From Escherichia phage vB_EcoM_JL1, in the sequence record OR791690.1: a stretch of 55,571 nucleotides of DNA. One strand, 5' to 3'. A program made the translations under genes and the position numbers. The notes below the pieces were generated by a model, which saw only the letters and a program-made list of their open reading frames with translations, searched no databases and was not told the DNA's origin. Shown in pieces: positions 2,996-55,356 of the stretch (within the stretch, counting starts at the first letter, position 1; each line of letters starts with the position of its first letter).

Positions 2996-3424
2996 ATAGG
3001 ACGTTGGGCTTCTGCTCCCCGGCCCCCTAAAAATAAAATTAATATTGCCACAATTCGAGTCTCGTTAATATCGAACAAATTCGAGTCTCCAATATCGTAA
3101 CAATTTTAGTCTCATTAATTCTGTAGCAATATTGAAAATAAAAAAAAAATTATAAAAAAATTATTTCATAGCCAGACAACTGTTCGAACAAATTTCGGCG
3201 AGATAACTTCTCCGAAGGAGATACAGCTGACCGACCATGAACGAATTACTATCCAGGTACAGTTGACCGACCATGTACCATTTGGTTTTGAACTTTACGC
3301 ATTCCTAATATTACTCTTAATATTGTAGCAATATTGGGAATAAATAAATATTTAATTTACTTGTCTTATTCTAGCTCAAAGAGAAACGACGCTAACGCAT
3401 CGAATCTCTTCTCGCATATAATCG
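2996..3424 (-). promoter_or_regulatory. AT-rich non-coding control region between nrdB and RNAP gene, with direct repeats
   Basis: no ORF; three ~25-bp direct repeats (GAGACTCGAATTTGTTCGATATT-like, minus strand), two copies of CATGGTCGGTCARCTGTAYCT, long A/T tract 3131..3170, repeated CAATATTGCTACA. Confidence 0.6.
3149..3179 (-). promoter_or_regulatory. Candidate sigma70-type promoter upstream of RNAP gene
   Basis: minus strand TTGTCT then about 18-19 nt then TATAAT; spacer slightly long. Confidence 0.3.
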
Positions 3425-4525
3425 TTAAAGCTCAAATCCGCCCAGAGCATTGGTGTCCACTTCGGAATCAATCTGCCCGACAAGGTACGAACTAATCTCC
3501 GTTTCTTGTGGAGCAACTTGTACAGCATCCGAATTCAACCATGCGTTAATCCAAGGAATCGGGTTAGTAGCACCTTTGAATGGAGCATCTAATCCAACTG
3601 CTTGCATACGAATATTCGTGATATATTCCACATATCCGCATAGAATTTGCTTGTTTAAGCCAATCATTGAGCCATCTTTGAACAAATAATCAGCCCAATC
3701 TTTCTCTTGTTGGGCCACATTTTCGAACATGAGTTGGCATTCTTGGCGGCATTCTTTAGCAATTTCGGCCATTTCTGGGTCATCAACACCACTTGCAAGA
3801 AGGTTCAGCATGTGTTGAGTTCCAGTCAAATGGAGTGCTTCATCACGAGCAATTAAGCGAATAATCTTGGCATTTCCTTCCATCAACTTGCGTTCAGCGA
3901 AGGCAAATGAACAAGCAAAACTGACATAAAAGCGGATTGCTTCTAGTGCATTAATGGACATGAGGCATAAATATAGCTTCTTCTTAAGCTCACGAATAGA
4001 AACCTCATCTTCATGCAGATGCCACATGGAAGTTAGGTGTTGAAGTTCGTCATAATATTGGGAGATGCCGATTGCACGCATTTTAATATGCTCATTCTCC
4101 ACAATTTCATCGAAAATGACACTCGGGTCTGTAACAATATTACGAATAATATGCGTGTAAGAACGGGAGTGAATTGTCTCTGAGAAGGACCAAGTTTCAA
4201 TCCAAGTTTCCAGCTCAGGAATGCTCACAATTGGCAGCAAAACTGTGGTTGGTCCACGTCCCTGAATGGAGTCAAGCAAGATTTGATAGCGCAAATTGCT
4301 GGTGAAGATGTGCTTCTCACATTCAGGCAGACCAGCATAGTCAATTCGGTCCTGGCTAACATCAACCTCTTCAGGTCGCCAAAAGAAAGATAACTGCTTT
4401 TCGATTAACTTCTCGAAGATGCTATACTTCTGTTGGTCATATCGAGCAACGTTAACGTTCTGACCAAAGAACATTGGCTCTAGTAGTTGGTTATTCTTGG
4501 TTTGTGAAAAGGTAGTGTAAGCCAT
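3425..4525 (-). CDS. nrdB: Ribonucleotide reductase class Ia small subunit (NrdB), host-like
   Basis: near-colinear with E. coli NrdB as I recall it ([11 protein letters not shown]..., [32 protein letters not shown]); no NrdA in the window. Confidence 0.9.
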
Positions 4526-38204: not shown

Positions 38205-38855
38205 TTATTCCTGTTTAATGAGTGCCTCCCAGCAAACAGGAAACAACTCTGACATAATTTTATTGACTTCTTCTGCAAACAAACGTGCCTCATATTGGGC
38301 GTGCTCTGTAGAGCGTTGCTTGTACATATTAGCCCAGCCCAGTAAAGAGCCAGTCCAAATCCATGTAGTCATCATGGATTGTGGCAACACCATTCGGGCT
38401 TGCTCTGGAGCAATCCCCAAACCAATTAACGTTTCATATTCTGCAATGCAAGCCTTGTTGTGGCTTTCCATGCGATAATGAATATCGTCAGCAAAATCCT
38501 GTGGCAATGGTTGTGCAGTCTGAGTCATCAACTTTTCAGGACGACCAAACACCACATCAGGTACAAAGCATTCAATTTCGATTGCTTCGCCATCTTTGTA
38601 ACGACGGCTAACTTCGTTCCAACGAAAGCCCACCTGGTGCTTACCCAGTTGGCGTGCAACAAAGATTGGTGCAGTGCAGCGTAATGTTACATACGCATGG
38701 GCAAAAGGTGTATTGTGCTTATGCCTTGCGAGAAATTCAATGAGCTTTTCGTCGCGCAATGTCATCTCGTGGGACTCTGCACCATAAGAAGCTCGTGCAG
38801 CATTAACAGTTGTAAGGTCGCTGCCCATGTGGTCAACGAGTGTTGCAGTAATCAT
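38205..38855 (-). CDS. thyX: ThyX-like flavin-dependent thymidylate synthase homologue with altered RHR motif
   Basis: MGSDLTTVNAARASY, APIFVARQL, RSTEHAQYE match ThyX as I recall it; canonical RHR replaced by KHQ. Confidence 0.6.
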   Translation of the reverse strand: MITATLVDHMGSDLTTVNAARASYGAESHEMTLRDEKLIEFLARHKHNTPFAHAYVTLRCTAPIFVARQLGKHQVGFRWNEVSRRYKDGEAIEIECFVPDVVFGRPEKLMTQTAQPLPQDFADDIHYRMESHNKACIAEYETLIGLGIAPEQARMVLPQSMMTTWIWTGSLLGWANMYKQRSTEHAQYEARLFAEEVNKIMSELFPVCWEALIKQE

Positions 38856-38911
38856 TTGCTCTCCGGTTCATATGGTGGGAGATTAATTAGCTCCGCACCA
38901 TGATAATGGTA

Positions 38912-39142
38912 TTATTTTAATGACGCCTGAATTTCTTTCATCGACGCATTTAGTACAGAACGCTTTTCATATTCGCGTTGATTGTACGTGCTTGTCAGTG
39001 CTTCCGCAGCTTCTATTGACAAGATTGCAAAACCACCAAAGGCATTGCGAACTTCTTCAATATCCATGTGCAGGACTTCACTTGTAATTTGGCTTGCTAT
39101 TACGGCCTTATAAATCTCTTCGGCAATTTCAGCAGTTTTCAT
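38912..39142 (-). CDS. Hypothetical protein
   Basis: 76 aa minus-strand ORF. Confidence 0.4.
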   Translation of the reverse strand: MKTAEIAEEIYKAVIASQITSEVLHMDIEEVRNAFGGFAILSIEAAEALTSTYNQREYEKRSVLNASMKEIQASLK

Positions 39143-39644
39143 GTTTCTCTCCAGTTAAAATTTAAGTAAGTGTCCTGACGTGAACTGTTACAAAACACTT
39201 ATTAAATTTGATTCGAACCGCCCAAGTGAATCAGCCTTGTTTATGGGGACCATCGGGGAAAAGTATAAACCCGCTTAATGCTCGCATCATGTTTGAACAT
39301 TAAGAACCCTCGACTTGCATATTTCATGTGTATAGGAACATAGTCTGGATTTTGAATCCAGCTAACTTCGGGATGAGGAGTAACCCAAACGAAAGCCTGA
39401 ACTTTCTTTCTGCACAACACAATCAGCGCAACTAAGCCGTATCGCTACGGTATGCCAGACGCTCGCATGAGCCTTTTGAACAGAGGCATAACTGTTGGAG
39501 GTAAAGTGGCGGATTCGGCGAACGTTAGTTCACAATTACACAGTCGGCCTCGGATGCTTCATCCCTATCCCATCGTGCAGGTTTCATTAACTCTACGAAT
39601 CCATTGAATTTGGTGGCCGATACGTTGGCCAGACGCTGTGATAT

Positions 39645-39845
39645 TTAACAAGGGTCGCTGTCAGGTTCTGTCAACTTCTTGCGAAGGAATGCATCCCCTG
39701 CGTTATACAGAAATGCGAAGTAAAGTTGCTTTGCCTTATGTCGGCTACAACCCAAGGCTACCTGAATTTCTTGATACTGATATGTACGCACCTCATTATT
39801 AATGATTGCGTTGCGAATGATTGCACGAATGCTGATTTTGTCCAT
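39645..39845 (-). CDS. Hypothetical protein
   Basis: 66 aa minus-strand ORF. Confidence 0.35.
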   Translation of the reverse strand: MDKISIRAIIRNAIINNEVRTYQYQEIQVALGCSRHKAKQLYFAFLYNAGDAFLRKKLTEPDSDPC

Positions 39846-40228
39846 AGAAGACTACCTTATACAGTTGAGGTTGCGGCCTTTACGCGGCCAACGTGCCATT
39901 AATGCTGGCAAGACAGAGCTAACGTTCTCAAGCACTTTTGTCTAGGTCTGTTCCCGGCCACTGTTCTAGGAAGTGACTACCTGAACTTTCTCGCGTTCAA
40001 TGCGAGGCAGCAATTTTAATTGTTATGCCCAGAGCAACTTGCAGGTTTGTTTGAGTTGGAGTCCTGCTTCCAAACGCATGGGCTTACACCATCATCGCAA
40101 CAAGTTGCTAGAGTCTCGTTATTTAAAGTCGCGCACTCCCTCGACTTTTGGGTAGTTATAGACGTCCGTCTTGGCTGTCGTCACCTTGGTCAGTCTTTTA
40201 CACCACCAACTAGCTAGGCCATGTTCAC

Positions 40229-40438
40229 TCACTGTCGGGTAAGTTTCGAACACTTTTGTGCCCACGTTTCATTGTGGACTAAAATCTGTGTTTTGGTTTC
40301 GCGTGATAAGATTTTCACTTCTGCAACATCCAAATAGATTGGTTGTGCAATTAAGCAGTAATCACTTACGAACCCACTTTGAGAGCAACTCACTATCGAC
40401 ATTGCTATCAGAACTGCTAGACACTTCTTTCTGAACAT
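40229..40438 (-). CDS. Lipoprotein, o-spanin-like, partly embedded in upstream gene
   Basis: MFRKKCLAVLIAMSIVSC lipobox; starts inside 40362..40598 in another frame; no clear RBS. Confidence 0.3.
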   Translation of the reverse strand: MFRKKCLAVLIAMSIVSCSQSGFVSDYCLIAQPIYLDVAEVKILSRETKTQILVHNETWAQKCSKLTRQ

Positions 40439-40598
40439 GCGTTTTAATCTCGATAGATTCTTTAATGGAGTCGAATTGCTTCTCTTTGGCTTCCTGACGC
40501 TCCTCGGCTTTGCCTGAGCTTTTGCCTTTGAGGAACACTGCAATAAGAATACCAAATGCAGTCAGGACGCCAAGAACTATTGATTTAAGCTGTTGCAT
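40362..40598 (-). CDS. Membrane protein, i-spanin-like
   Basis: N-terminal TM helix, charged periplasmic-type remainder; AGGTGA RBS. Confidence 0.4.
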   Translation of the reverse strand: MQQLKSIVLGVLTAFGILIAVFLKGKSSGKAEERQEAKEKQFDSIKESIEIKTHVQKEVSSSSDSNVDSELLSKWVRK

Positions 40599-40779
40599 AA
40601 ATCACCTTAGATGGCGCACGCACCACTTGAGCAGTCGTTATCGCCCTCACCAGGAACGATTGCTTCTTCGTCCTGCTTCTTCTTAAGTTCTTCAATTGCT
40701 TCTTCGGCAGCACCGAAGTCTAAATTATCAAGTGCATCAAAATCCATAAGGACTCCAGTATTGCGGTTATTAAAGTGGG

Positions 40780-40872
40780 TGGACGAGGTTGGATTCGAAC
40801 CAACGACACATCTGCCTAACAGATTGCTCTACCTGACTAAGCTCTGGAGCAGACCTTCTGAGCTACTCGTCC
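40780..40872 (-). tRNA. tRNA gene with ~20-nt insertion; anticodon probably UAG (Leu) by manual fold
   Basis: acceptor stem GGACGAG/CTCGTCC, T-arm GTTGG-TTCGAAT-CCAAC, D-arm GCTT-AGTCAGGTA-GAGC, anticodon loop GUUAGGC; extra TAGCTCAGAAGGTCTGCTCCAGA between acceptor strand and D-arm. Confidence 0.6.
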
Positions 40873-41860
40873 AAAGAATAAGAGGGTTTTGATAACGCAG
40901 GTTTTCCCGAACTGCGAGGCTTGTAGAATCCGTGAGCCGCCTACTGTGTTTTGACATAACGTGGGATTGATGGTCCCGACTCACTTCATCTCAGGTACGA
41001 GGCACTACTTTGCGAGTGCAAGCAGGTGTTGAACCCAAGTACCAACAGGCAACCTGATTTAATCTACCTTTGTAGATACCATCGGTTATGAGCAGTTTAT
41101 TTCCATACTCAGGGCAACTCACTTTAGGGTGAATTTAGGTTACGCAGTGCAGCTTCGAAGTCGCTGCCACAGGCTTGAGATTCCTGTGTGGAGGGAAATC
41201 CAGAGGAGCACTTCCCCAAGGAGTTACGTTTCATATTGGCATAGCTTCTCACACTAAGCCAATTGAAGACATTCCAGTGTGCTCGTCCGTCCTCTAGAAA
41301 TATCCAACTGCATAATTAAGTTTGTACTCTGTCACATCCCCACGCGCACTGAGGGACTTAAGCCTGCATTGCATCGCAGAATACAAATTAATTATTGCTC
41401 CGATTTATTAATCACATCTCGAAGCCACAATGCGCCAAATTTGGTTACGTGGGATTGGAAGACCACGGAGAGGACTTAAATTTAATTAAGCCGCAACTCG
41501 CATTTCAGAATCATTTGCATTTATTTTAAATGAATAAAACAGTCGCAATAACTCCAGGCAGTTTAGGCCCGTCGTAAGACTCAGAAAACTACTTCAATTT
41601 GTACACAACAAATTTCCCAACATTGCCTTCCGTCGAAGGCTCATGCACTGGTGTTTGAATTATGCACAAATTGAAATAACTTCAATGAACACTCTTGTCT
41701 GGGCCATGAGATTGGGCATCGGCCTACCTCCCAACTCTAATCACAAGAATGCTCATTGAAGCCCACTCTTCCTTTCAGAATGGGTTCAAGGCAGCACCGG
41801 AAATATTCCAGTGCATGCCAGATCGATTTAGCTTAGTCTCTCAAGTTTGCCATCGGCAAC

Positions 41861-42199
41861 TTAGAATACCGGAGCTTCTTCAACAGCAGCTTCGGCAGCT
41901 TCGGCAACACTTGCGTCAGCAACTTTAGCTTCTTTCGGAGTATCGAACTTAGTACGCTCAACTTCCGGCTCACCAGCTTCAACCCACGGCAGGTAGAATG
42001 CCAGGAACTGCTCGATGGTGTTCTTCTGCATGGAGCGAGAACGGTCGATAGCGCCAACGGTGTTCAGGTACGCTTCGGCAGCTTTCTCAATTTTAGCACC
42101 GTTTTCCAGTTTGAAGTCATGTGCATTACACTCTGCTTCGGTCAGGAACAGGGAACCATCGTTAGCTTCGTACTGAGTTACGGTTACAATCTTAGCCAT
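41861..42199 (-). CDS. Hypothetical protein
   Basis: 112 aa; downstream of promoter-like motif P5. Confidence 0.5.
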   Translation of the reverse strand: MAKIVTVTQYEANDGSLFLTEAECNAHDFKLENGAKIEKAAEAYLNTVGAIDRSRSMQKNTIEQFLAFYLPWVEAGEPEVERTKFDTPKEAKVADASVAEAAEAAVEEAPVF

Positions 42200-42272
42200 T
42201 TGTATATACCTTATATTGAATAGTTTTGCACGCCACGGTGACGCGACTTAGATAAAATTAAAGAGCCTTTCT

Positions 42273-42295
42273 CTTTCCACATCCAACTAATGTTT
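42273..42295 (-). promoter_or_regulatory. Phage-promoter-like conserved motif (copy P5)
   Basis: plus ctttccacatccaactaatgttt. Confidence 0.4.
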
Positions 42296-42322
42296 CAGAA
42301 CTGCTCTGATTCGACAAACGAC

Positions 42323-42997
42323 TCAATATCTATTGAATCGTTCTAGTGTTTTATTTACTAAATCCTTTGTCTCAGCGACAGTGAGTTCAGTGATGATTGA
42401 TTCGTCATAACCCTCAATCTGGATTGCTACAAAACGCCCAACTCCAGTTACAGTAAGTCGGTTTGTTCTGTCACGAACAACTACACCAGCTTCTTGCGCG
42501 ACTGCTCGCAGCAATTTCCAGCGTAAAGTTCGATTTGGCACAGCAAAGCCCTTTGCCGAGAACAACTCTTTCATGAGTTCTCCAAGACAAACAGCTTCAA
42601 TGTTTTGTCCTCTTCCAACTAATTCTTGCAACAGGCACAGTGTCAACATTTCTAAATTGTTGAAGTGCCCAGCGCGCTCCAAATTAAAGAACTCTGGAGG
42701 AACAGTTGAACGAGATTTAACAGCTTGCTTATATGCACGTTCTTCTTCCTGTGCAGCAAGCATCAGCATCTCTGGCTTAATGTACTTCATAGCAGAGAAG
42801 CCAGCGCGTGTGGCTTTAATTATGCGACAAGCCTCTTTCATCTTGTAGCGTTGCCACTCACCGCGCTTCGATTCTGGATTAAAATGGACCCACATAATGA
42901 TAACATCTTCCTTGGCAAGATAGACGGCATCATTATCATTGAGCCATTGCTTACACGTTGATAGTGCAATCTCTTTGTCATCATCATGATAAGACAT
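42323..42997 (-). CDS. Hypothetical protein
   Basis: ORF open to 43054; likely ATG at 42997 (MSYHDDD...). Confidence 0.45.
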   Translation of the reverse strand: MSYHDDDKEIALSTCKQWLNDNDAVYLAKEDVIIMWVHFNPESKRGEWQRYKMKEACRIIKATRAGFSAMKYIKPEMLMLAAQEEERAYKQAVKSRSTVPPEFFNLERAGHFNNLEMLTLCLLQELVGRGQNIEAVCLGELMKELFSAKGFAVPNRTLRWKLLRAVAQEAGVVVRDRTNRLTVTGVGRFVAIQIEGYDESIITELTVAETKDLVNKTLERFNRY

Positions 42998-42998
42998 T

Positions 42999-43325
42999 TT
43001 AGTGGCCTTGTAGGATACGTTTGTTCGCAGTTTCTGCGTCGATTCCCAAATCAACTAATGTCACCAAGCACTGCGAAATCCGCTCTTGCGCAGCTTTCTC
43101 CAGAATTTGGTATTTTTCGTTGTCAACGCCTAACACATTCTTGGCATGAATGAGTGTAGCCATCAGACCGTGCCCCAAAGCAACAGCTTGCATTGCCTGG
43201 AGTTCAAAGTTAATTGTGATGCCAGCGAGTTCGTGCTCTTTCTGGATAATCTCAATCAACTCTTCTTTAGATTTGTCCTGTAAGTTCAAAATGGAACTCC
43301 GTAAATCGGTTGGTTTGTTGTCCAA
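42999..43325 (-). CDS. Hypothetical protein
   Basis: 108 aa. Confidence 0.45.
   Translation of the reverse strand: MDNKPTDLRSSILNLQDKSKEELIEIIQKEHELAGITINFELQAMQAVALGHGLMATLIHAKNVLGVDNEKYQILEKAAQERISQCLVTLVDLGIDAETANKRILQGH
43045..43062 (-). promoter_or_regulatory. Phage-promoter-like motif (copy P6, inside upstream ORF)
   Basis: plus cccaaatcaactaatgtc. Confidence 0.3.
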
Positions 43326-43606
43326 TTGCGAGTTGCGATTTGCATGGACTTGTTTGGGCCGCAGTAGAAATATTTCTTAACTTCGGCAAGGGTGTAGTTG
43401 GCACTGCTTTCAAGCAACTCCTTAAAGGTGTGCTTCCAGAATCCATCTTTCTCCGACAAACTTACGTGGAAAGAATTGGTGCCGTTATAGTACCAACGCC
43501 CACCAACGAGAACGAAGTGGATTGTTTCTTCCTCTCCTTCCCCACTCGACGGAAACATTAGTACATTTCTCAACGTCAAAACTTTAGCAGAATGCTTGCG
43601 AATCAT
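43286..43606 (-). CDS. Hypothetical protein
   Basis: 106 aa; GGAGAG RBS. Confidence 0.45.
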   Translation of the reverse strand: MIRKHSAKVLTLRNVLMFPSSGEGEEETIHFVLVGGRWYYNGTNSFHVSLSEKDGFWKHTFKELLESSANYTLAEVKKYFYCGPNKSMQIATRNWTTNQPIYGVPF

Positions 43607-44157
43607 AGGAACTCTCCAATTTTCGATTCAGTGTTTGTGACTTCTCTTCTCATCTTTTGGCCCAGGAACAGGCCACAGGGTAGCGCAGGAAGGCCGAAAA
43701 TCGGGCCACTGCCTACCGTTTGTGTCAATTCTGGATAACTGCATTGGCGAAGGGTTACTCCCGTTAGGGTGCGATACGCTAATCACATGAGTGTCGTCGC
43801 CTTGCGGCTCAGGCGTGTCACAGAGGCTTTGCAACCCTTCCCAATACATTCACCCAATCCACCCGCTTTGGCATAGCTGGTGGCGCGGTTTTGTGCGGAT
43901 TATGCCACTCTAAGCCCTGTTTGTCCGACTTCCTCAGAGCACCAGCAGCTTGTGGCACAAACCTATTTTCGAATGACTAACATAAGCATGAGGCATAACC
44001 CTCTAATTATTCAGCCCTAACAGCTTGCTTATTTAGTTCCAATTCATCCCAATACATCGCCTATAACAAGTGAATAGCTTTCTGTGGATAAGTATTCCGG
44101 CCCTTTGGCCTATGTTAAAAGATAAATGTATATGATGGAAACATTCCATCGAAAAGA

Positions 44158-44222
44158 ACTTTGTAGAACGAATCGAACGTTCTCACACGTCTTGGTACCA
44201 GACGGACTACCTAGTTACAAAG
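44158..44222 (-). ncRNA. tRNA-like minihelix (D-arm-less)
   Basis: acceptor CTTTGTA/TACAAAG, T-arm GAACG-TTCGATT-CGTTC, one internal hairpin; 65 nt; 20 nt downstream of motif P7. Confidence 0.3.
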
Positions 44223-44241
44223 CTCTTATCTGATGTTGTTT

Positions 44242-44260
44242 CTTCAATTCCAACTAATGT
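44242..44260 (-). promoter_or_regulatory. Phage-promoter-like conserved motif (copy P7)
   Basis: plus cttcaattccaactaatgt. Confidence 0.4.
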
Positions 44261-44271
44261 AATTTTGTGCT

Positions 44272-44362
44272 GTACTCTCTTCCCAAGTTGTCCAGACTTG
44301 GTTGTTTGAGGCTGCGCTTATTGCAGTGGACTTCCTCTACAATTGCTAGTGGAAAAGAGTAC
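44272..44362 (-). ncRNA. Candidate structured small RNA between motifs P8 and P7
   Basis: 12-bp inverted repeat arms (gtactctcttcc / ggaaaagagtac) enclosing ~67 nt with an internal hairpin; no ORF. Confidence 0.25.
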
Positions 44363-44379
44363 AGACAGAATTACACTAA

Positions 44380-44399
44380 TTCAATTCCAATTAATGTTT
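44380..44399 (-). promoter_or_regulatory. Phage-promoter-like conserved motif (copy P8)
   Basis: plus ttcaattccaattaatgttt. Confidence 0.35.
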
Positions 44400-44465
44400 C
44401 AGAATTATTCCAATATTCCAAACAAAAAGAATAATAAGAATAAATTAAATAAATGAAGAAAGTGC

Positions 44466-44495
44466 TTGACACCCATTTGGCGATAAGTGTATAAT
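44466..44495 (+). promoter_or_regulatory. Near-consensus sigma70 promoter on the non-coding strand
   Basis: TTGACA (44466..44471), 18-nt spacer, TATAAT (44490..44495), TG immediately upstream of the -10. Confidence 0.5.
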
Positions 44496-44520
44496 GCCTT
44501 TCTTCCCTAAGTGGTCAGAA

Positions 44521-44539
44521 TCAAATCCCACTAATGTTT
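44521..44539 (-). promoter_or_regulatory. Phage-promoter-like conserved motif (copy P9)
   Basis: plus tcaaatcccactaatgttt. Confidence 0.4.
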
Positions 44540-44606
44540 CAGACTAAAGCCGAAGGCCAATGCGAGCACAAAACCCGCTTGGCACTTCGAAGAAACCCGC
44601 CTGGAA

Positions 44607-44846
44607 CTATAGTGTTTTCCAGTCCGAGTCAAATAGCTCTTTCGGTCGTGTGTAGATAGTAGAAGAATCAATACTTAAGAAAGTATGGTCCCCGTACTTC
44701 TTCACTTCTTGGTAAGCAAACCCATCTACCCAACTTCCGCAGTGAGTTTTAATCTTTGTAGGCCCAAGAATACGATAGAAAGTGTTTCGAGGCTGGTGGT
44801 GAACAATCAATCCAGCCTCAAGTTCAGCAATATTTAAATCACGCAT
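44607..44846 (-). CDS. Hypothetical protein
   Basis: 79 aa. Confidence 0.45.
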   Translation of the reverse strand: MRDLNIAELEAGLIVHHQPRNTFYRILGPTKIKTHCGSWVDGFAYQEVKKYGDHTFLSIDSSTIYTRPKELFDSDWKTL

Positions 44847-45396
44847 TTAAGAATAATATTCCCTCAGAGAAAATGTAGTCACTTCCATAATCTCTGGTGA
44901 TTGCATCCCAATCAATATATGGTGCAAGTCGGTCTGGAATATCCAGTGCCTCACTTTGCTTCAAATATTCTGTAATTGAGTCGCAACGTGTAATGAACAT
45001 ATCGTTCAAATCATCCACAGTGAAAATATCAATCTCACCACTGCGGAATGCTGCAAGAATTACATCCAAATCGGTGTCAACAAGCAGCTCATTGAACTTA
45101 TCATATTTACGAATGCTGAATAGCCCATTGGCAAAGCAAACTTCGGTAACATCTTCTTCATTTGACTCAATTACGTCGTATGTACCGGTTTCTGGATATT
45201 CAATGCCATATTCTTCATGCAAATAATCTCGCATGTTGAAATCATAGTGACGCCAAGACAGGCCATCAATCCACGCATCTACAAATTCAGAATTAGTTTC
45301 GCCTGTGTAGAAACGAACCAATAAGGTTTCATCTCTACGCCAGGACTTAAGCTGTTCTACTGCTTGAGTAATTTGGTTTTCCATCGGATTCTCCAT
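44839..45396 (-). CDS. ArdA-like acidic protein (candidate anti-restriction DNA mimic)
   Basis: 185 aa, strongly acidic; C-terminal YIDWDAITRDYGSDYIFSEGILF resembles ArdA as I recall it. Confidence 0.45.
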   Translation of the reverse strand: MENPMENQITQAVEQLKSWRRDETLLVRFYTGETNSEFVDAWIDGLSWRHYDFNMRDYLHEEYGIEYPETGTYDVIESNEEDVTEVCFANGLFSIRKYDKFNELLVDTDLDVILAAFRSGEIDIFTVDDLNDMFITRCDSITEYLKQSEALDIPDRLAPYIDWDAITRDYGSDYIFSEGILFLNA

Positions 45397-48315: not shown

Positions 48316-48354
48316 AGATTAATCAGGAACACTCAATGAATGCTCCTTGTTAAT

Positions 48355-48666
48355 TTAACGTTGCTTCTTCGCCCACTCTATTGCGGCCATTATTGTATCG
48401 CCATGACAGCGTGCTGGGGCACACCAACAAACTAAATCTTTGCCATCTAATGCCAGCAAATCATCTATTGTTACTTCACCAGATTTAATTTGTTTCCACA
48501 AATACTTGCGATACTCTTCGCACACGTAGTCTCTCTGACTTTCTTTAAACATTTTAAAAGGATTGTGGAATTTCTTGTTTCCAGCGATTCCCTTCATATC
48601 TCGACCGATATATACTGCGTTGTTGTGAACACCTTTAACTTTCGAATAGTTCAAAACTCTTGCCAT
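48355..48666 (-). CDS. DUF4326-like protein
   Basis: C-terminal DLVCWCAPARCHGD motif; ATG at 48666 with GGAG RBS (track start 48696). Confidence 0.5.
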   Translation of the reverse strand: MARVLNYSKVKGVHNNAVYIGRDMKGIAGNKKFHNPFKMFKESQRDYVCEEYRKYLWKQIKSGEVTIDDLLALDGKDLVCWCAPARCHGDTIMAAIEWAKKQR

Positions 48667-48685
48667 CTTTATTCTCCAATTATTA

Positions 48686-48704
48686 CTCACAATCAACTAA
48701 TGTT
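48686..48704 (-). promoter_or_regulatory. Phage-promoter-like conserved motif (copy P11), ~20 nt upstream of gene start
   Basis: plus ctcacaatcaactaatgtt. Confidence 0.45.
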
Positions 48705-48744
48705 AGATTAATCATGGACACCTACAGGAGATGCCCATTGTTAA

Positions 48745-51229: not shown

Positions 51230-51492
51230 TTTAAGTGTGGCCCACCTTCCATAAAGCTGGACATGAAATTGTTTGTGATGCCTCGGATTACCTTATCTGT
51301 GAGAACATCTTCATAAAACTGTTTGTTAGTGATTTCAATACCAAACTCCTCCTTGATACGAACCACTAACTCATTTGTTGAAACATCAATCCAACCACCG
51401 TAGTTGACAACCAAACGCTCTTGGATGAATTCAATCTTTTCTTCATAGGAGGCCAGCTCGATTAAGTCAGGCTTCAATTTAAACTGTGTCAC
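51226..51492 (-). CDS. Hypothetical protein
   Basis: 88 aa. Confidence 0.45.
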   Translation of the reverse strand: MTQFKLKPDLIELASYEEKIEFIQERLVVNYGGWIDVSTNELVVRIKEEFGIEITNKQFYEDVLTDKVIRGITNNFMSSFMEGGPHLK

Positions 51493-51677
51493 TTGGCCCC
51501 CAGAATTTGGCTTAATGAACTGAACACGATTTCCTCATGTTCGTCAGGTGTACATGCATTGATGTATTCAAAGTCGTAACCAACAAACTTCTCCGCCCAC
51601 TGTTGCAAACGAAGTAAAGAATTGAAGTACAATCTTTGCTCCACACCATTTAACTTAAAGTAGACGATGAAGTCCAT
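51489..51677 (-). CDS. Hypothetical protein
   Basis: 62 aa. Confidence 0.4.
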   Translation of the reverse strand: MDFIVYFKLNGVEQRLYFNSLLRLQQWAEKFVGYDFEYINACTPDEHEEIVFSSLSQILGAK

Positions 51678-51692
51678 GTTTACTCCTATGTA

Positions 51693-51911
51693 TTAAACTT
51701 CAATTGGCTCTTGAACTAAATCAGAGGCTGAGATTTCTTTAAACTCCTCCTCGGTAAAAGTTCTCTCATTGTCATTTAATAAAACACCAATGTTAGAATC
51801 ACCAACGAATACAGCATTTACATTAATGTCATCTTCCAAAACTTTTTGCAGGTGTTCTCCACCACGCGTAAAGAAGATTGCACCATCTTCCAAATCTTTA
51901 AAACGAGTCAT
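51693..51911 (-). CDS. Hypothetical protein, first gene after the control region
   Basis: AGGAG RBS; preceded by hairpin. Confidence 0.45.
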   Translation of the reverse strand: MTRFKDLEDGAIFFTRGGEHLQKVLEDDINVNAVFVGDSNIGVLLNDNERTFTEEEFKEISASDLVQEPIEV

Positions 51912-51932
51912 TTTATTCTCCTAAGTTAAAAG

Positions 51933-51960
51933 AAATAGCCCACAAGATTGCAGGCTATTT
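51933..51960 (-). promoter_or_regulatory. 5' leader hairpin (terminator-like) just upstream of first early gene RBS
   Basis: minus AATAGCC-N12-GGCTATT followed by TCTTTT then AGGAG and ATG. Confidence 0.3.
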
Positions 51961-52052
51961 GTGACACAGCAAGTGCCGAAGAACTACAATGATTAGCTTG
52001 GAGACATAATCTCTCTAAAATCTGTCACAGAATTTACAGAGATTTGGTCTTA

Positions 52053-52070
52053 TTCACATGCAACTAATCG
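52053..52070 (-). promoter_or_regulatory. Degenerate copy of phage-promoter-like motif (P12)
   Basis: plus ttcacatgcaactaatcg. Confidence 0.25.
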
Positions 52071-52259
52071 AAATAATGACGCGCCAATCTAATACAATAT
52101 TACCCCGCCAAATGAGATAAATTGCAGCAGATTGGCACGAACATTTGTAGCACTGGAGTTCTGTAGAAGCAGCCAACTTGTTTGTATTTGGCACAAACAG
52201 TTGAATACCTATGTACAGAAAACCGACCATTTAATTAATAAACTAAATGATTTAAATAA

Positions 52260-52520
52260 AGGGTTTTATCCCAATATTGTCACAATATTACATGCGATGA
52301 TAAAGCCTTCGCTTGGCTGGAAGCCAGTATTCATGCGGGTTGCAAGAATATTGGGTTAAATACTACATGCGAATTTGGCACAAATACTGTTACAAAATTA
52401 ACATGCCAGATTGGTAGACGATTGTATCTTCGAGGTGATTAGTCCTCTAACAATTCTGCCACATTCCAACATGCCAATTTGTAGCAATATTTACATGCCA
52501 TACTGCGACAATATTGTCAC
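52260..52520 (-). repeat. Cluster of short repeats in the control region
   Basis: at least five minus-strand copies of YGGCATGTWAATATTG-like motif and two AATATTGTCACAATATT near-palindromes; no ORF. Confidence 0.5.
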
Positions 52521-52992
52521 AATATTTGTTGCTCAAAATCGGGGCGGCAAACGATATTAAATTCGATGCTTTGTCCGACTTCTTCTCTTCTTTCGAATTC
52601 TGATTGAAAGAAAGAAGCATGTCCAAAAGTTCCAATATTACAAAGTTATCTCCCGGCTTGTGGGTGGGCCTTTATAATAGGAGATGGAGCAATATTGTTG
52701 CAATTGAACATGCTTTAGTTGAAGAACAGTTTCGAATGGTAATCCTACTTCACACATGGTTGTTGGAACTTTGTCCGGCCAAAGACAGGGAGTTCAATGA
52801 TTGCCACATCATTACAACACTGTATGTTTAGTTGACATGCTGAAATGTTTCTAGAATGATTTCAACATGACATGCGGAATACTTCTCCGTATTCTGTTAC
52901 TTCACATCCAACTAATGTTACAGGTGGCTACAATATTGAAGCCAGCTCTAAGATTAATTGAAACAAGAAAAGGGAGCCGAAGCTCCCAAATA

Positions 52993-53193
52993 TCAGAACG
53001 GTATCTCTGTATCGAAATAACCAGAATTGTGCAAATATGCATGCAGTAATACATGCGACTCTTGTTTATATTCTGCTAACAACTCTAAGAAGTCTTTAGT
53101 CTCCTCCACTGTAGGACGAGATAAGTTGCTCATGTCACAGGTGTGATGAGGGTTGAAACAGTTTTCGATTTGATTGATTTGCATGGTATTCAT
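52993..53193 (-). CDS. Copy of 417..617 (small protein ending DTEIPF)
   Basis: sequence identity with 417..617. Confidence 0.5.
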   Translation of the reverse strand: MNTMQINQIENCFNPHHTCDMSNLSRPTVEETKDFLELLAEYKQESHVLLHAYLHNSGYFDTEIPF

Positions 53194-53241
53194 TATAAGT
53201 CTCCAAGTTTGTGGTCATCCTTGACCAATTAGTGTTACTGA

Positions 53242-55356
53242 TTATTGACAGAAGTAGTAAGCGTGTTCGCTCATCAGAAGCTCTTCAGTTACGATGTTCT
53301 CATGATACATCTTGATGCCACCAAGTTGCTTAGACAGATTCTCGAATTGATTGTTGGTTACAAAGATTTCAACATATGCTGCACGAATAACTTCCATCAT
53401 ACGTGGAGCATCTGCCAAACAGCAACGGAAACAATCATGGATTGAAGTGAAGCCACGAAGACCAGCTTCTTTAGCTTTAACTGCAACAGTACGAGCAACA
53501 AGTGCATCAATGCCCTGAATGTAGTTAACAACGAAAGTACGCTTGAATTCTTCTTTAGTTGGATTGGATTCACGAATGGTCCAAGGCTTATTCTCCTGAA
53601 TCTGACCAAAGATAACACGAGTTTGGGAGTCAACACGAATGCTGAATGCCTCACAGATTTCACGAGATGGGAAGCAAGGCTTCATTACAACCTGACCATC
53701 AGTGTGACGATATGTGATGTACTCTTTACCAAGTTCAACACAACGGTTGTATGCAGCATCAGCAGCTTTCTCAATGAACATGTTAATCTTAGCACCCAAT
53801 GCGTTATGGATTGCTTCCACACACAGTTCAGCAAATGCCTCAGCTTTCTCCATAGGAATCTGGAGTGCTTCTGTCATGTAGCTGATGAAGTCAGAAGAAC
53901 CAGTCAATGCAGCTTTACCACCACCGTATTGGATAGCCATGTACGGAGTTTTGATAAACTTACGACCAGCTTTCGGATTCAAGAATTCATCCATGATTTC
54001 AGGAGATGGTTTCATTGAAGACTTGTCCAGCAGCTTCAACAGTTCACGAAGACTCAACTGGTATGGGTCAGATGCTTTAGTCTCAGAATCAACCAGACCT
54101 GTTGCACGAGCCATTTCCATATTACCAGCAATGAATGCCAGATATTGAGTACCAGAACATTTAGCATCTAAGCCAAAGCCTACACGAGAATCACATTCAC
54201 CTGTAGTCTCGAACTTGAACCAATCCAGAGCCAGACGAACATAAGTGAATGGCTTGGAAGGACGTTCAGCTTTAGGCATGTTCATCATGCGAGCAAGTGA
54301 ACCAGCTGGATTCTGAGCAACATAAGTTAAACGCTTAGCACTGCACCATTCACCACCAGAAATATCTTCCAGCTCTGCCATAAACATGTTGTATGCAATG
54401 GTAGTAGAACCATCTTCGTTAAACTTCTTAACGATGTTCTCAACATTGTGAGAATACAAGCAACGAGCAAAGTCAGATGATTGTGGGTTAGGACCAGCAC
54501 ATGCTACATGATACAGACGACCACGGTTATCAGCAAAGTAGTCAGAATACAGTGTGTCCTGATTCATCATTGCTACAGCATTGTTCCAAACATGGAGTTC
54601 AGTCTGGATTGCTTCTGGCATCTGCAAGCCACCATAGGTACGTTGTTCAAGCATGGACTGAATGATGCGAACCATCTCAGTCTCCACATGGTACTCAGTA
54701 TCTTGCAGGAATTCGATTGCAGCTTTCAGAGTTTTGGATGGCTTAACTTTGCCACCTTTAACGAAAGGCTTGCGACGAGATTCAGATGTAACACGCTCAG
54801 TGAATGGCACTGCGGTATCTTTGGTTGTAACCAGCTCAACCCATGTGTCAGTTTGTTGGAACGACTTATCTTCGTTCATGGTGATGAAGCCAAAGTGCTT
54901 AGCCAGGCCAATGAGGTTGATAGCTGGGTCAACATAGTGCATTGCTTTCAAATCATTGTTGTAACGGTTGGCATCAGCAATTGAAGCAGAAGCCAGCTCA
55001 ACCATTGCAATTGCAGGAACAACATCATCACGAGTGAATGAGGTCATCATCTTAAAGATTGCAAGAGCAGCAATAGCACAGGTCTGAGGTTGCATGTAGT
55101 TCTGTTTCTCTTTGGCACGATATACCAGAGCAGTGATAGCAGGGACAACGGATTTGATAGTTTGAGTTGAGATAGTTGCCATTTTGCGAGTCTCCAATTT
55201 AGTTTCGGTTTTAGTTTCGGATTGTGTAGCGGAGGTGATTTCATCTACCATCTGGTTGCAACGGTCCATCGTATCGAGCACGTCTTTCCAACCGTGGCCT
55301 TCTTCTTTTAAGCGAGCACCATCAGCAGCCAGTGTACGATATTCTTCATTAGTCAT
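53242..55356 (-). CDS. Copy of T7-like single-subunit RNA polymerase gene
   Basis: identical to 666..2780. Confidence 0.85.
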   Translation of the reverse strand: MTNEEYRTLAADGARLKEEGHGWKDVLDTMDRCNQMVDEITSATQSETKTETKLETRKMATISTQTIKSVVPAITALVYRAKEKQNYMQPQTCAIAALAIFKMMTSFTRDDVVPAIAMVELASASIADANRYNNDLKAMHYVDPAINLIGLAKHFGFITMNEDKSFQQTDTWVELVTTKDTAVPFTERVTSESRRKPFVKGGKVKPSKTLKAAIEFLQDTEYHVETEMVRIIQSMLEQRTYGGLQMPEAIQTELHVWNNAVAMMNQDTLYSDYFADNRGRLYHVACAGPNPQSSDFARCLYSHNVENIVKKFNEDGSTTIAYNMFMAELEDISGGEWCSAKRLTYVAQNPAGSLARMMNMPKAERPSKPFTYVRLALDWFKFETTGECDSRVGFGLDAKCSGTQYLAFIAGNMEMARATGLVDSETKASDPYQLSLRELLKLLDKSSMKPSPEIMDEFLNPKAGRKFIKTPYMAIQYGGGKAALTGSSDFISYMTEALQIPMEKAEAFAELCVEAIHNALGAKINMFIEKAADAAYNRCVELGKEYITYRHTDGQVVMKPCFPSREICEAFSIRVDSQTRVIFGQIQENKPWTIRESNPTKEEFKRTFVVNYIQGIDALVARTVAVKAKEAGLRGFTSIHDCFRCCLADAPRMMEVIRAAYVEIFVTNNQFENLSKQLGGIKMYHENIVTEELLMSEHAYYFCQ

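Follow-up and report, generated by a model that had tools for sequence, protein, structure and literature searches.

Introduction

tmRNA is seen as a molecule complete in itself, its tRNA-like and messenger functions physically coupled; the known exceptions are two-piece forms, both pieces of which come from one gene and are paired via helix 2 and the acceptor stem. How much of the molecule template switching needs in cis has, to our knowledge, so far been approached only with engineered variants. Among RefSeq viruses, a survey reported ssrA in mycobacteriophages only (PMC4131195), and Felix O1 and Moogle have been credited with 'ssrA' from ARAGORN (PMC4319497, PMC4392139). Mycobacteriophage DS6A contains little beyond the tRNA-like domain (TLD) of a tmRNA, and a similar molecule strongly inhibits tmRNA, perhaps via titration of SmpB (PMC4131195).

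The locus described here lies on the minus strand of Escherichia phage vB_EcoM_JL1 (OR791690.1), at positions 40873-41860 of the 55,571-nt stretch that was analysed as a whole and that we call the window. It is a modular, covarying non-coding RNA of ~1 kb. The initial annotation, which had offered a long structured RNA, a decayed gene and several micro-ORFs as options, missed the identity of the element: it is a messenger module like that of tmRNA, with an antisense to host tmRNA in front of it.

Results

Coding content and short motifs

As the initial annotation had stated, no minus-strand ORF of 60 aa or more is contained in 40873-41860. The longest are 43 aa (40991..41122) and 42 aa (41124..41252), followed by ORFs of 30 aa and 26 aa; a 51-aa minus-strand ORF (40829..40984) extends into the tRNA-like gene at 40778-40872, and the plus strand of the region has ORFs of 66 aa and 59 aa. 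Neither a decayed gene nor a set of micro-ORFs gains support: no small ORF of the region, on either strand, matched PHROG or Pfam, and the single-base and whole-module indels found among close relatives ignore the small-ORF frames. The sole frame under coding constraint in the region is a start-less 10-codon tag of the tmRNA type. What gained support was the suggestion of a long structured RNA, through covariation in the core and in the 3' half and through homologues that elsewhere occupy unannotated stretches.

Two short hairpins that had been pointed out, GCCTTC-GACG-GAAGGC (41625-41640) and GCACT-N8-AGTGC (41002-41019), are real, and each is part of a helix conserved among relatives. The TGGCATG motif (41814-41820), also pointed out there, occurs 9 times in the whole window where 10.65 copies are expected, which is the level of chance.

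A core homologous to the messenger part of tmRNA

The central part of the region is organized as follows.

41397-41592, minus strand: conserved core, homologous to the messenger part of tmRNA
41584..41592, minus strand: antisense block 1, GUAGUUUUC, perfectly complementary to GAAAACUAC at nt 99-107 of E. coli tmRNA, which holds the tag codons E-N-Y
41549..41583, minus strand: 35-nt lineage-specific insert that splits the antisense and can form a hairpin GGGC-CUAAACU-GCCU
41536..41548, minus strand: antisense block 2, UUGCGACUGUUUU, forming 12 Watson-Crick pairs and 1 G-U pair with E. coli tmRNA nt 81-93
41519..41535, minus strand: single-stranded A/U-rich leader ending in UAAAU (U-5, A-4), directly 5' of the resume codon
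41486..41518, minus strand: start-less tag frame of 10 codons, GCA AAU GAU UCU GAA AUG CGA GUU GCG GCU UAA, i.e. ANDSEMRVAA*
41397..41500, minus strand: structured 3' part of the core, with a helix-5-like stem enclosing the stop codon and two pseudoknots
41433-41467, minus strand: H-type pseudoknot a, with covariation
41397-41432, minus strand: pseudoknot b with the conserved loop GAUGUGAUUAAUAA, with covariation

That the core is a homologue of the tmRNA messenger is, in our judgement, very probable. The comparison with Rfam that the initial annotation had proposed gave no match for the region at gathering thresholds, and below them it pointed to tmRNA families at the tag: tmRNA_permuted (20.5 bits, gathering score 47) and alpha_tmRNA (17.6 bits, gathering score 50) both centre on 41486..41518. 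Across the whole window the only Rfam signals are the tRNA-like gene and these families, and the same families are matched by the homologous elements of Ackermannviridae and Felix O1-like phages. With blastn, host ssrA has no nucleotide-level similarity to the region, and the absence of a match in all complete E. coli genomes indicates that the region is neither a recent capture of ssrA nor a prophage element.

At 41516-41523 the sequence UAAAU is followed by GCA, that is, a frame-setting leader by an alanine resume codon. U85 and A86 of E. coli tmRNA occupy the same positions and set the reading frame (cf. PMC2481249). In 53 dereplicated homologues, retrieved with a search pattern that left both positions free, A-4 never varies and conservation of U-5 is 90% or more. 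In Felix O1 and GJ1 in-frame stops lie upstream of the tag with no start codon in between, as judged by eye.

ANDSEMRVAA, a tag of the degradation type, is common to chaseviruses, in which it differs only synonymously; other tags of the homologues are ANDNVFLAVA, ANDDVVLMAA, ANDSEVLMAA, ANDAQFLAVA and more. Exactly 10 codons and a stop were found in 113 of 120 IMG/VR pattern matches, with 23 distinct peptides, and the tag ends in AA or VA in all 113 of these homologues. Codon 10 is GC+N, with position entropies of 0/0/1.64. Third codon positions take 58 of the 109 changes in the tag, and there is an excess of synonymous changes (p=0.014), in a test that is modest and in which codons 1-3 are fixed by the search pattern. 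By these sequence patterns, the tag evolves like protein-coding sequence.

The stop codon lies in helix 5 and the pseudoknots follow it, as in tmRNA. The structure of the core comprises 20 pairs in which 91.5% of cells are paired, compared with 33-49% when the partners are slid against each other. Double-sided changes are present in 15 of the 20 pairs; there are 153 compensatory cells compared with 41 in shuffles, and none of 500 shuffles reached the observed value. The tertiary helix of the pseudoknot is 100% paired, with all 4 of its pairs covarying.

Complementarity to host tmRNA

The 5' part of the core is complementary to host tmRNA. The target of block 2 (nt 81-93) spans U85, A86, the -1 triplet GUC and the resume codon GCA. 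In relatives the antisense target extends over nt ~57-107 of tmRNA, from the 3' half of PK1 through A86, the -1 triplet and the resume codon to tag codons 3-6. FXie and TH23 lack the 35-nt insert and their antisense is continuous. Essentially every one of the 113 IMG/VR homologues has the motif GUUUUCG, for which a search in cis found no conserved partner.

When the 5' segments were aligned locally to the reverse complement of ssrA they always fell on nt 80-107 (z 4-6.6). The duplexes have energies of -24 to -39 kcal/mol, those of shuffles lie at -13 to -24, and in 11 of 15 phages none of 200 shuffles matched the observed energy; pairing of the 5' segment with the phage's own tag region is much weaker than with host tmRNA. 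Of 53 dereplicated RNAs, more than 85% pair with host A86-C91 and with nt 97-105, and full-length cofolding preserves the pairing of host nt ~81-107 (81-93 and 96-107) with the phage RNA (ddG -5 to -12). These tests take host tmRNAs to resemble that of E. coli.

The split antisense of the window (9 + 13 nt), taken alone, is barely significant: its score was attained by 11 of 300 shuffles, and a cheap-gap local alignment, which inflates the null, gives a z of 1.4. A sliding 24-nt scan of duplex energy, which does not distinguish AU-rich true blocks from GC-rich chance matches, did not single out the window antisense, and RNAduplex on long sequences was discarded as it returned meaningless whole-length duplexes. 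The window antisense carries weight because it is homologous to that of FXie, TH23 and other phage families. Complementarity to host tmRNA exceeds chance at a conserved site across the homologues and is marginal for the window alone. We consider it fairly likely, from the sequence comparisons, that the antisense is functional.

The antisense also appears in variants that may follow the host. Chaseviruses of E. coli and Yersinia carry GUAGUUUUC, which fits ENY-type tmRNA, and those of Erwinia and Pantoea carry GAAGUUUUC, which fits the ENF-type tmRNAs of Erwiniaceae; Erwinia phage Ea21-4, with the 'E. coli-type' block, is an exception. Scored against ENY- and ENF-type tmRNAs taken as representative of the hosts, the preference is reciprocal and amounts to ~4.5 kcal/mol. 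In the literature searched, no phage or cellular RNA directed at the messenger region of tmRNA came up, and on these tags or on 'tmRNA-like' phage RNAs it found nothing beyond ARAGORN mentions.

Accessory modules around the core

The core is embedded in further structured modules.

41762..41860, minus strand: module A, a group of three hairpins immediately past the stop of a 112-aa gene
41680..41761, minus strand: module B, a long hairpin with base helix CUUCAAU/AUUGAAG and an apical pseudoknot-like stem-loop
41593..41675, minus strand: module C, a long hairpin with a base helix as in module B, containing GCCUUC-GACG-GAAGGC (41625-41640)
41332..41396, minus strand: module E, a variable cassette, by eye only like a truncated copy of the tag end and downstream hairpin (GCAGGCUUAAGUCCCUC...GAUGUGA)
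40873..41331, minus strand: module F, a structured RNA of ~460 nt with compensatory pairs by RNAalifold

The hairpins of module A lie at 41845-41860, 41794-41814 and 41756-41789; the third, CCCAUUC/GAGUGGG, is replaced by UCCUCU/AGAGGG in FXie and is the 'permuted acceptor stem' of ARAGORN -ps80. Module B is missing from GJ1 and PYps3T and lies downstream of the tag module in 4HA13, Fifi451, SSEM1 and Faunus, a difference in position which shows that modules were shuffled among relatives. The stems of module C covary by eye; it is homologous to the segment that immediately precedes the tag module of Felix O1-like phages and is missing from MLP1, TH25 and TH23. Extra or variant copies of module E are found in flopper and FXie.

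Module F contains hairpins at 41062-41077 and 41002-41019 and a terminal one, CGCAG-UUCGGGAAAAC-CUGCG. Compensatory pairs detected by RNAalifold in 8 close relatives include, among others, 41304/41191, 41263/41235, 41260/41238 and 41255/41243, and further 41083/41056, 41076/41063 and 41074/41065. In Pectobacterium phage PM1 the module is conserved in part. Modules A, B, C, E and F, shuffled as they are among relatives, would be structural or processing accessories.

Absence of a tRNA-like domain and the flanking tRNA-like gene

The core has no tRNA-like domain of its own (acceptor stem with G3:U70, T-arm, CCA). With default settings ARAGORN called no tmRNA in the window, Felix O1, JN01, PH4 or Magnus. 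It made a single call in 143 homologous loci, and this one was rejected, its 'TLD' being stitched together from neighbouring tRNA genes; such an artefact may be the source of the published 'ssrA' reports in Felix O1-like phages. A T-arm-like motif of any kind was found nearby in 59 of 113 loci, mostly in ordinary tRNAs, and in 54 there was none.

Several candidate domains were rejected. The permuted TLD at ~41770-41815 (ARAGORN -ps80) has a non-canonical T-arm and no CCA, and it is refuted by FXie, which is without the whole segment, and by flopper, which has G3:C70 in place of G3:U70; the stop codon in FXie lies ~10 nt ahead of the hairpin used as 'permuted acceptor stem', and everything upstream of that hairpin is missing there. 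A 'standard' tmRNA obtained with relaxed ARAGORN settings, assembled from GGACGAG at 41288 and the second half of the tRNA-like gene (3'), was dismissed since its tag is junk and the real tag lies outside. UUCGACG in 41625-41640, considered as a tmRNA D-loop motif, was set aside: it forms the loop of a hairpin that covaries, and Felix O1 reads UUAGACG at this place. Beside the Felix O1/JN01 element stands a tRNA-like gene with G3:U70, A73 and CCA, which was not accepted as a TLD because the same gene stands alone in T5-like, rV5-like and jumbo phages and is a normal tRNA-Arg(UCU) in L133.

The region adjoins on its 3' side the following gene.

40778..40872, minus strand: aberrant tRNA-like gene with acceptor stem, T-arm, a D region enlarged by an insertion of ~20 nt and a hypervariable anticodon loop

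It had been taken for a tRNA. Its tRNA-like character stands, and its status as a genuine tRNA does not: ARAGORN makes no tRNA call, the Rfam tRNA model scores 27.0 bits (gathering 29) and covers model positions 9-63 only, and it has no cloverleaf that passes tRNA detectors. The minimum-free-energy fold shows the acceptor stem and the T-arm, and where the D and anticodon arms would be it has one long central helix. The anticodon loop is of 5 nt or irregular, with the loop sequence GUUAGGC in vB_EcoM_JL1, GUUCGAC in GJ1, flopper, MLP1, TH25 and TH23 and GUAAGAC in FXie. Acceptor pair 3:70 is A3:U70 in the window, and in relatives the CCA end is partly encoded. The record of phiEcoM-GJ1 labels the homologue 'tRNA-Arg, may contain an intron'. 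In PYps3T the gene is deleted and the tag module kept, so it is not an obligatory partner supplying the TLD.

Distribution and transcription

The core is present in at least 760 phage records, belonging to Chaseviridae, Felixounavirus, Ackermannviridae and 45-kb siphoviruses, and in at least 120 IMG/VR contigs. The family defined here is without an Rfam model. Homologues in other phages sit in unannotated stretches, some of them within tRNA arrays, and the element explains the recurrent 'gene desert' beside phage tRNA genes. In several families tRNA-like modules share the transcription units of the element. In PH4, Magnus, Akira and DS8 the tag is followed by acceptor/T-arm-like modules (by eye). 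A tRNA on the same strand lies no more than 1.5 kb downstream in 37 of 113 homologues. The tRNA-like modules in these units could provide a non-canonical tRNA-like domain. In 4HA13 an HNH endonuclease is inserted in the region. Small 'hypothetical proteins' are annotated here in several relatives, one of which is called 'endolysin' in PYps3T.

Upstream of the region a candidate promoter was found.

42276..42295, minus strand: candidate phage-RNA-polymerase promoter AAACATTAGTTGGATGTGGA, identical to 'putative phage promoter 7' of phiEcoM-GJ1

From 42295 this promoter would transcribe the 112-aa gene, the RNA region and the tRNA-like gene as a single unit. A scan of 40500-42400 found neither minus-strand terminator-like sites nor a sigma-70 promoter. 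Transcription of the region is plausible, judging from the predicted promoter and the terminator scan. In the siphoviruses and Erwinia phage Ea21-4 a near-consensus sigma-70 promoter puts the antisense at the extreme 5' end of the RNA, and in DS8 the unit closes with an intrinsic terminator (both by eye).

Discussion

From these results we propose, at a confidence slightly short of even, that the element is a headless tmRNA-like RNA with an antisense to host tmRNA, acting by a hybrid two-piece mechanism. The 5' stretch complementary to host tmRNA suggests that the phage blocks or rewrites host ribosome rescue. The phage RNA would base-pair with SmpB-bound host tmRNA; formed in vivo, this duplex would mask the host resume codon and tag template, and would set the phage leader and resume codon beside the host tRNA-like domain, an arrangement like that of a natural two-piece tmRNA. 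Ribosomes under rescue would use the phage template, copying its tag and terminating on the phage stop codon. Such a swap, in which the phage tag replaces the host tag, is conceivable and short of probable. If it occurs, each rescued polypeptide in the infected cell would be tagged ANDSEMRVAA, not ANDENYALAA, and the fate of tagged proteins would be altered, e.g. by loss of the SspB-binding ENY motif or by a changed ClpXP degron. That a widespread class of phage RNA hijacks ribosome rescue in this way, as an inter-species two-piece tmRNA with the head and SmpB from the host and the template from the phage, we regard as somewhat unlikely.

The same complementarity speaks equally for a pure anti-tmRNA antisense or decoy, which pairs with tmRNA or titrates SmpB, S1 or RNase R and thereby shuts down or destroys host trans-translation, e.g. 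by RNase III cleaving the duplex, and whose tag frame is an untranslated structural mimic, and partial tmRNA mimics have a precedent as inhibitors in the TLD-only case of DS6A (PMC4131195). Such an RNA has, however, no need of a tag constrained like a protein (10 fixed codons, a conserved stop and free third positions in the final Ala codons), of tags that differ only synonymously among chaseviruses, or of a conserved frame-setting A-4/U-5, and we consider it unlikely. Nor do we favour, with still lower expectation, that the element is half of a complete phage two-piece tmRNA, its partner being a phage tRNA-like RNA that brings the aminoacylatable end and is base-paired to the tag RNA. Candidates for that role are the gene at 40778-40872, which adjoins the region 3' and has an acceptor stem and a T-arm, and in other families the acceptor/T-arm-like modules downstream of the tag (PH4, Magnus, Akira, DS8); the same-strand tRNAs within 1.5 kb in 37 of 113 homologues also fit, and natural two-piece tmRNAs are known (Rfam RF01849, RF04321). 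But none of the candidates has the alanine identity pair G3:U70, PYps3T keeps the tag module without the tRNA-like gene, about half of the loci have no T-arm-like motif nearby, no conserved pairing between tag RNA and tRNA-like modules was found, and the antisense to host tmRNA would be left unexplained.

The mosaic architecture, with modules gained, lost and shuffled between close relatives, the HNH endonuclease insertion in 4HA13 and the degenerate tRNA alongside are what one would expect of evolutionary debris, a slowly decaying relic of a tRNA/tmRNA cluster acquired from other phages by recombination and functionless, perhaps apart from RNA processing sites. Debris would hardly be kept as a core in several phage groups of different families and hundreds of genomes, with covarying stems, a constrained tag and, in other families, near-consensus promoters, and we think this account very improbable. 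A frameshifted remnant of a protein gene, or a cluster of translated micro-ORFs, is hardly credible: the 'hypothetical protein' annotations of relatives and the 'endolysin' of PYps3T suggest it, but against these stand the missing PHROG and Pfam matches, the indels that ignore the small-ORF frames, substitutions that are compensatory in stems and not codon-periodic, and homologous stretches elsewhere that are unannotated or lie within tRNA arrays.

Should the hybrid two-piece mechanism be correct, a messenger half alone joined to an antisense to host tmRNA would be a new kind of viral interference with translation quality control, and would offer a natural test of how much tmRNA template switching needs in cis. 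The carriers are hundreds of virulent enterobacterial phages from several unrelated families.

The element shares with GOLLD and ROOL that it is a long, ornate, ORF-free phage RNA, often beside tRNA genes. It differs from them in sequence and motifs and in the presence of a decodable tag frame, and the Rfam models of these two families and of other large RNAs stayed without a hit at lax cut-offs, E<=10 for 38500-44900 and E<=1 for the window as a whole. Like trans-acting antisense sRNAs with a 5' seed, it has a conserved, accessible 5' region (in several families) with imperfect, multi-block complementarity to a single-stranded part of an abundant host RNA; in contrast to them its target is tmRNA instead of an mRNA, and the antisense is fused to a replacement template. 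The tmRNAs of phages (mycobacteriophage Bxz1 group, Bacillus phage G) and the DS6A molecule are likewise tmRNA-derived phage genes, and DS6A shows that phages can hold a partial tmRNA; yet the known cases are either complete or the tRNA-like half alone, whereas here we find the messenger half with an antisense.

With one-piece tmRNA (SsrA, RF00023, E. coli ssrA) the phage RNA has in common the A/U-rich leader with U-5/A-4, the GCA resume codon, the start-less 10-codon tag of the form AND....AA, the stop in helix 5 and the H-type pseudoknots downstream. Unlike one-piece tmRNA, it is without the G3:U70 acceptor stem, the T-arm and the closing CCA and falls below the Rfam and ARAGORN thresholds; its 5' part is an antisense in place of the TLD, helix 2 and PK1, and it is here embedded in a multi-module RNA of ~1 kb. 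The closest analogue of the proposed hybrid are the two-piece families RF01849 and RF04321 (Alphaproteobacteria and others), which also gave the best, weak, Rfam scores: in both cases the template and the aminoacylatable end would be on separate base-paired chains. The difference is that the proposed partner of the phage RNA is the intact host tmRNA, and that the pairing would extend over the 3' half of PK1, the leader and the tag codons.

A tmRNA-type messenger core in the non-coding region

The region at 40873-41860 and its borders comprise the following features.

Features of the region and its borders (positions in the window)
42276-42295, minus strand, phage-RNA-polymerase promoter, identical to the annotated phiEcoM-GJ1 'promoter 7'
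41861-42199, minus strand, 112-aa gene (phrog_17419) bordering the region
41762-41860, minus strand, module A
41680-41761, minus strand, module B
41593-41675, minus strand, module C
41584-41592, minus strand, antisense block GUAGUUUUC, predicted to pair with host tmRNA nt 99-107
41536-41548, minus strand, antisense block UUGCGACUGUUUU, predicted to pair with host tmRNA nt 81-93
41486-41518, minus strand, tag ANDSEMRVAA
41332-41396, minus strand, module E
40873-41331, minus strand, module F
40778-40872, minus strand, tRNA-like gene

As the initial annotation stated, 40873-41860 lacks minus-strand ORFs of at least 60 aa (the longest measure 43 and 42 aa), and both hairpins it quoted exist (41625-41640 and 41002-41019); TGGCATG, which it took for a motif, occurs 9 times in the window versus 10.65 expected and is not one. 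Among the identities offered for this stretch, that of a long structured RNA is borne out by compensatory stem substitutions and a tmRNA-type messenger core. In the Rfam comparison it proposed, an E-value scan weakly matches tmRNA_permuted and alpha_tmRNA, the sole matches in the whole window besides the tRNA-like gene; no Rfam family covers the element. The tmRNA matches centre on AUAAAU-GCA AAU GAU UCU GAA AUG CGA GUU GCG GCU UAA, where the frame from GCA reads ANDSEMRVAA*, a textbook tmRNA tag; the tag of E. coli tmRNA is ANDENYALAA.

The tag stretch of about 130 nt is, by blastn, common to several phage groups, namely Erwinia and Pantoea chaseviruses, Ackermannviridae (PH4, Magnus), Felix O1-like phages and 45-kb siphoviruses (DS8, Akira, ZX4). 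The element of the Felix O1-like phage JN01 was matched by 763 phage records when its adjoining tRNA-like gene was included in the query, many of these matches covering the tRNA-like part alone. Each group has its own ten-codon tag (ANDNVFLAVA, ANDDVVLMAA, ANDSEVLMAA, ANDAQFLAVA, ANEEMYLAVA), and among chaseviruses with ANDSEMRVAA every nucleotide difference is synonymous. A pattern scan of IMG/VR gave at least 120 contigs, 113 of them with a ten-codon tag and stop, and 23 peptides. Across 42 distinct tag sequences the final Ala codon is GC plus any nucleotide (position entropies 0/0/1.64), third positions take 58 of the 109 inferred changes and synonymous changes are in excess (p=0.014). The tag frame has no start codon, and in-frame stops were seen by eye upstream of it in Felix O1 and GJ1. 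In the leader all 53 sequences have A at -4, and no fewer than 90% have U at -5; their equivalents A86 and U85 set the frame on E. coli tmRNA (PMC2481249). Comparison of the leader (41519-41535), which directly precedes the resume codon, with GJ1, TH25 and FXie shows two alleles, UAUUCAUUUAAAAUAAAU and UAAACACUAAACACAAGU, with A-4 in both. The independent assortment of these alleles from the rest of the region suggests recombination inside the element.

In the 53-sequence alignment the stop codon is enclosed by a helix resembling helix 5, the tertiary helix of an H-type pseudoknot is 100% paired and covaries in 4/4 pairs (CCGA/UCGG, CCAG/CUGG, CCAA/UUGG, UCGA/UCGA, CUAG/CUAG), and a second pseudoknot has the conserved loop GAUGUGAUUAAUAA. 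Paired cells amount to 91.5% versus 33-49% with slid partners, and 15 of 20 pairs show double-sided change. Compensatory cells number 153 versus 41 in shuffles, the observed value being reached by 0/500. By coding constraint on the tag, leader and covarying structure, the core at 41397-41592 is recognized as truly related to the messenger domain of tmRNA.

Neither PHROG nor Pfam holds relatives of the region's small ORFs, close relatives of the phage show single-base indels and whole modules gained or lost, and substitutions in stems are compensatory, which argues against both a decayed gene and micro-ORFs; a protein-coding remnant is hardly credible. Evolutionary debris also appears very improbable. 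Blastn against 5,426 complete E. coli genomes gave no match to the region, and the homologous pieces in other phages are unannotated stretches, some within tRNA arrays. In the Yersinia phage PYps3T an 'endolysin' CDS, probably a mis-annotation, is annotated within the homologous non-coding region (1326-1586 of locus L008), and in 4HA13 an HNH homing endonuclease gene has inserted into the non-coding RNA region and separates the tag module from module B (1500-1931 of locus L014).

Antisense 5' flank and host tmRNA

GUUUUCG(U) upstream of the leader is common to all families, and no conserved cis partner of GUUUUCG was found. UAGUUUUCGU is exactly complementary, in reverse, to ACGAAAACUA, which lies in tag codons D-E-N-Y of E. 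coli (ssrA sequence confirmed from an annotated genome). Local alignment of 5' segments with the ssrA reverse complement always matched nt 80-107, with z = 4 to 6.6 for FXie, TH23, Faunus, SSEM1, Felix O1 and Ea21-4, and z = 3.5 to 4.8 for PH4, Magnus, DS8, Akira and ZX4, where the match reaches nt ~57. Duplex energies are -24 to -39 kcal/mol versus -13 to -24 in dinucleotide shuffles (0/200 equally good in 11 of 15 phages), in every case the best site on the full tmRNA ends at nt 105-108, and the phage's own tag region gives far weaker duplexes (-11 to -23). Of 53 dereplicated RNAs, more than 85% pair with host A86-C91 and nt 97-105, and about 70% with nt 57-80. Full-length cofolding with intramolecular competition allowed left host nt 81-107 intermolecularly paired in 6/6 RNAs, including that of the window (ddG -5 to -12). 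Where the phage messenger domain departs from the host's, at the -1 triplet and codons 4-7, the antisense has its targets, which would keep the RNA from pairing with itself.

In one possible host-linked change, chaseviruses of E. coli and Yersinia have GUAGUUUUC and those of Erwinia and Pantoea have GAAGUUUUC, which fits the ANDENF... tmRNAs of Erwinia piriflorinigrans and Pantoea. With such stand-ins for the tmRNAs of the exact hosts, the preference is reciprocal at about 4.5 kcal/mol, the Erwinia phage Ea21-4 being an exception. Inspection by eye places the antisense at the extreme 5' RNA end, behind a near-consensus sigma-70 promoter, in the siphoviruses and Ea21-4, and an intrinsic terminator at the end of the DS8 unit. 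The antisense of the window is split in two by a 35-nt insert (41549-41583) and alone is of marginal significance (its score is equalled in 11 of 300 shuffles; z 1.4), nor does it stand out in the energy scan; it carries weight because of the insert-free FXie and TH23 of the same family and because of the other families. From these complementarities we are inclined to think that the 5' flank works through a duplex with host tmRNA.

Search for a tRNA-like domain

ARAGORN at default found no tmRNA in the window, Felix O1, JN01, PH4 or Magnus. Relaxed thresholds recovered the tag with proposed tRNA-like domains (TLDs) that relatives contradict, the segment being absent from FXie and G3:U70 being G:C in flopper. 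Over 143 homologous loci the default gave one tmRNA call, whose 'TLD' joins pieces of tRNA genes lying several hundred bases off, across three intact tRNA genes. Such an artefact may be what lies behind the statements in print that 'ssrA' is encoded by Felix O1 and Moogle (PMC4319497, PMC4392139); a dedicated survey found ssrA, among RefSeq viruses, in mycobacteriophages alone (PMC4131195). A T-arm-like motif lies within -900 to +1500 at only 59/113 loci, mostly in ordinary tRNAs, and the adjoining tRNA-like gene is gone from PYps3T, which keeps the core, and was rejected as the needed TLD. Very probably the element is a structured RNA whose core is of the tmRNA messenger type and which lacks a canonical TLD.

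The flanking gene, initially taken for a tRNA, is aberrant: ARAGORN found no tRNA gene in the whole window, and 40778-40872 scores 27.0 bits with the Rfam tRNA model, under the gathering value of 29, with partial model coverage. It has a D-region insertion of ~20 nt and three anticodon-loop sequences on otherwise near-identical backgrounds (GUUAGGC in the window; GUUCGAC in GJ1, flopper, MLP1, TH25 and TH23; GUAAGAC in FXie), and the 3' strand of the anticodon stem is a possible pairing partner for GUCUGC of the shared insertion. It looks like a fast-evolving decoy or processing signal, not a decoding tRNA. Its 5' acceptor strand, GGACGAG, has a second copy ~410 nt upstream of the gene in GGACGGACGAGCACACUGG (41274-41292), a stretch 100% conserved in relatives; the copy could be an alternative pairing partner or chance, recurrence of a 7-mer in 1 kb being expected in about 6%. 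A 511-nt 'tmRNA' built on it by ARAGORN -ps80 has no credible tag and was rejected.

Hairpin/pseudoknot modules make up the rest of the kilobase. Modules B and C have a common base helix, CUUCAAU/AUUGAAG, and vary in presence between relatives, B lying downstream of the core in 4HA13, Fifi451, SSEM1 and Faunus. Module E resembles, by eye, a truncated repeat of the tag end. Module F (~460 nt), part of which is kept by Pectobacterium phage PM1, has several compensatory pairs even between close relatives.

In JN01 (locus L003, 1821-1899) and Felix O1 (locus L004, 7953-8031) a tRNA-like gene directly follows the tag module. It has C1-G72, G3:U70, A73, an encoded CCA and a UCU anticodon loop without a normal D arm, scores 31.7 bits with Rfam and is missed by ARAGORN; homologues in T5-like, rV5-like and jumbo phages are annotated 'tRNA-TERM' or 'tRNA-OTHER'. 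It may be an alanine-accepting oddity. Other phages have repeated units downstream of the tag module, CACAAC-AGGUAAGAGCA...UGCUCUUUCC-GUUGUG(G), then a domain ending in a 5-bp hairpin and CCACAAC-A.

Repeated units (positions in the loci)
1110-1560, ZX4 (L015)
1130-1600, DS8 (L016)
1115-1340, Akira (L017)
1625-1990, Magnus (L002)

These are acceptor/T-arm-like minihelices without G3:U70 or CCA, and their GUUGUG has two alternative CACAAC partners. A non-canonical phage tRNA-like partner for the tag RNA seems quite improbable.

Genome context and transcription

The genome is of the phiEcoM-GJ1-like myovirus type (Chaseviridae, Carltongylesvirus), with 96-98% identity over the region to Escherichia phages flopper, DE15 and Bp7, and the minus strand holds essentially all genes. 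The same ORFs are found at both window ends (666-2780 = 53242-55356, offset 52,576 bp), therefore the window is a ~52.6-kb genome read beyond its own start, circularly permuted or with a terminal repeat included. Scanned for signals, 40500-42400 showed neither a sigma-70 promoter nor anything like a terminator on the minus strand, which, with the promoter at 42276-42295, makes co-transcription of the region from the phage promoter plausible. The phage promoter consensus ACATTAGTTGG recurs on the minus strand, with several copies clustered at 44262-44539, 48316-48705 and 52072-52920. Further stretches without ORFs of at least 80 aa (38855-40229, 43606-44839, 51492-53242 and 2780-3425) had no Rfam match in the E-value scan.

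Proposed mechanism and relation to known tmRNAs

In the literature searched, neither these tags nor a tmRNA relative reduced to its messenger part is described, and the same holds for an RNA complementary to the template region of tmRNA. We propose that the phage RNA would pair with host tmRNA and that the hybrid would write the phage tag. A pure inhibitor or decoy, weighed on the same duplexes and the same tag constraint, is unlikely. The tag-writing hybrid is the reading that best reconciles the tag constraint with the absent TLD, and is put forward tentatively. As the TLD that defines tmRNA was looked for and not found, the element is not a tmRNA proper but a tmRNA-derived RNA, and the phage-host hybrid could possibly constitute an inter-species two-piece tmRNA.
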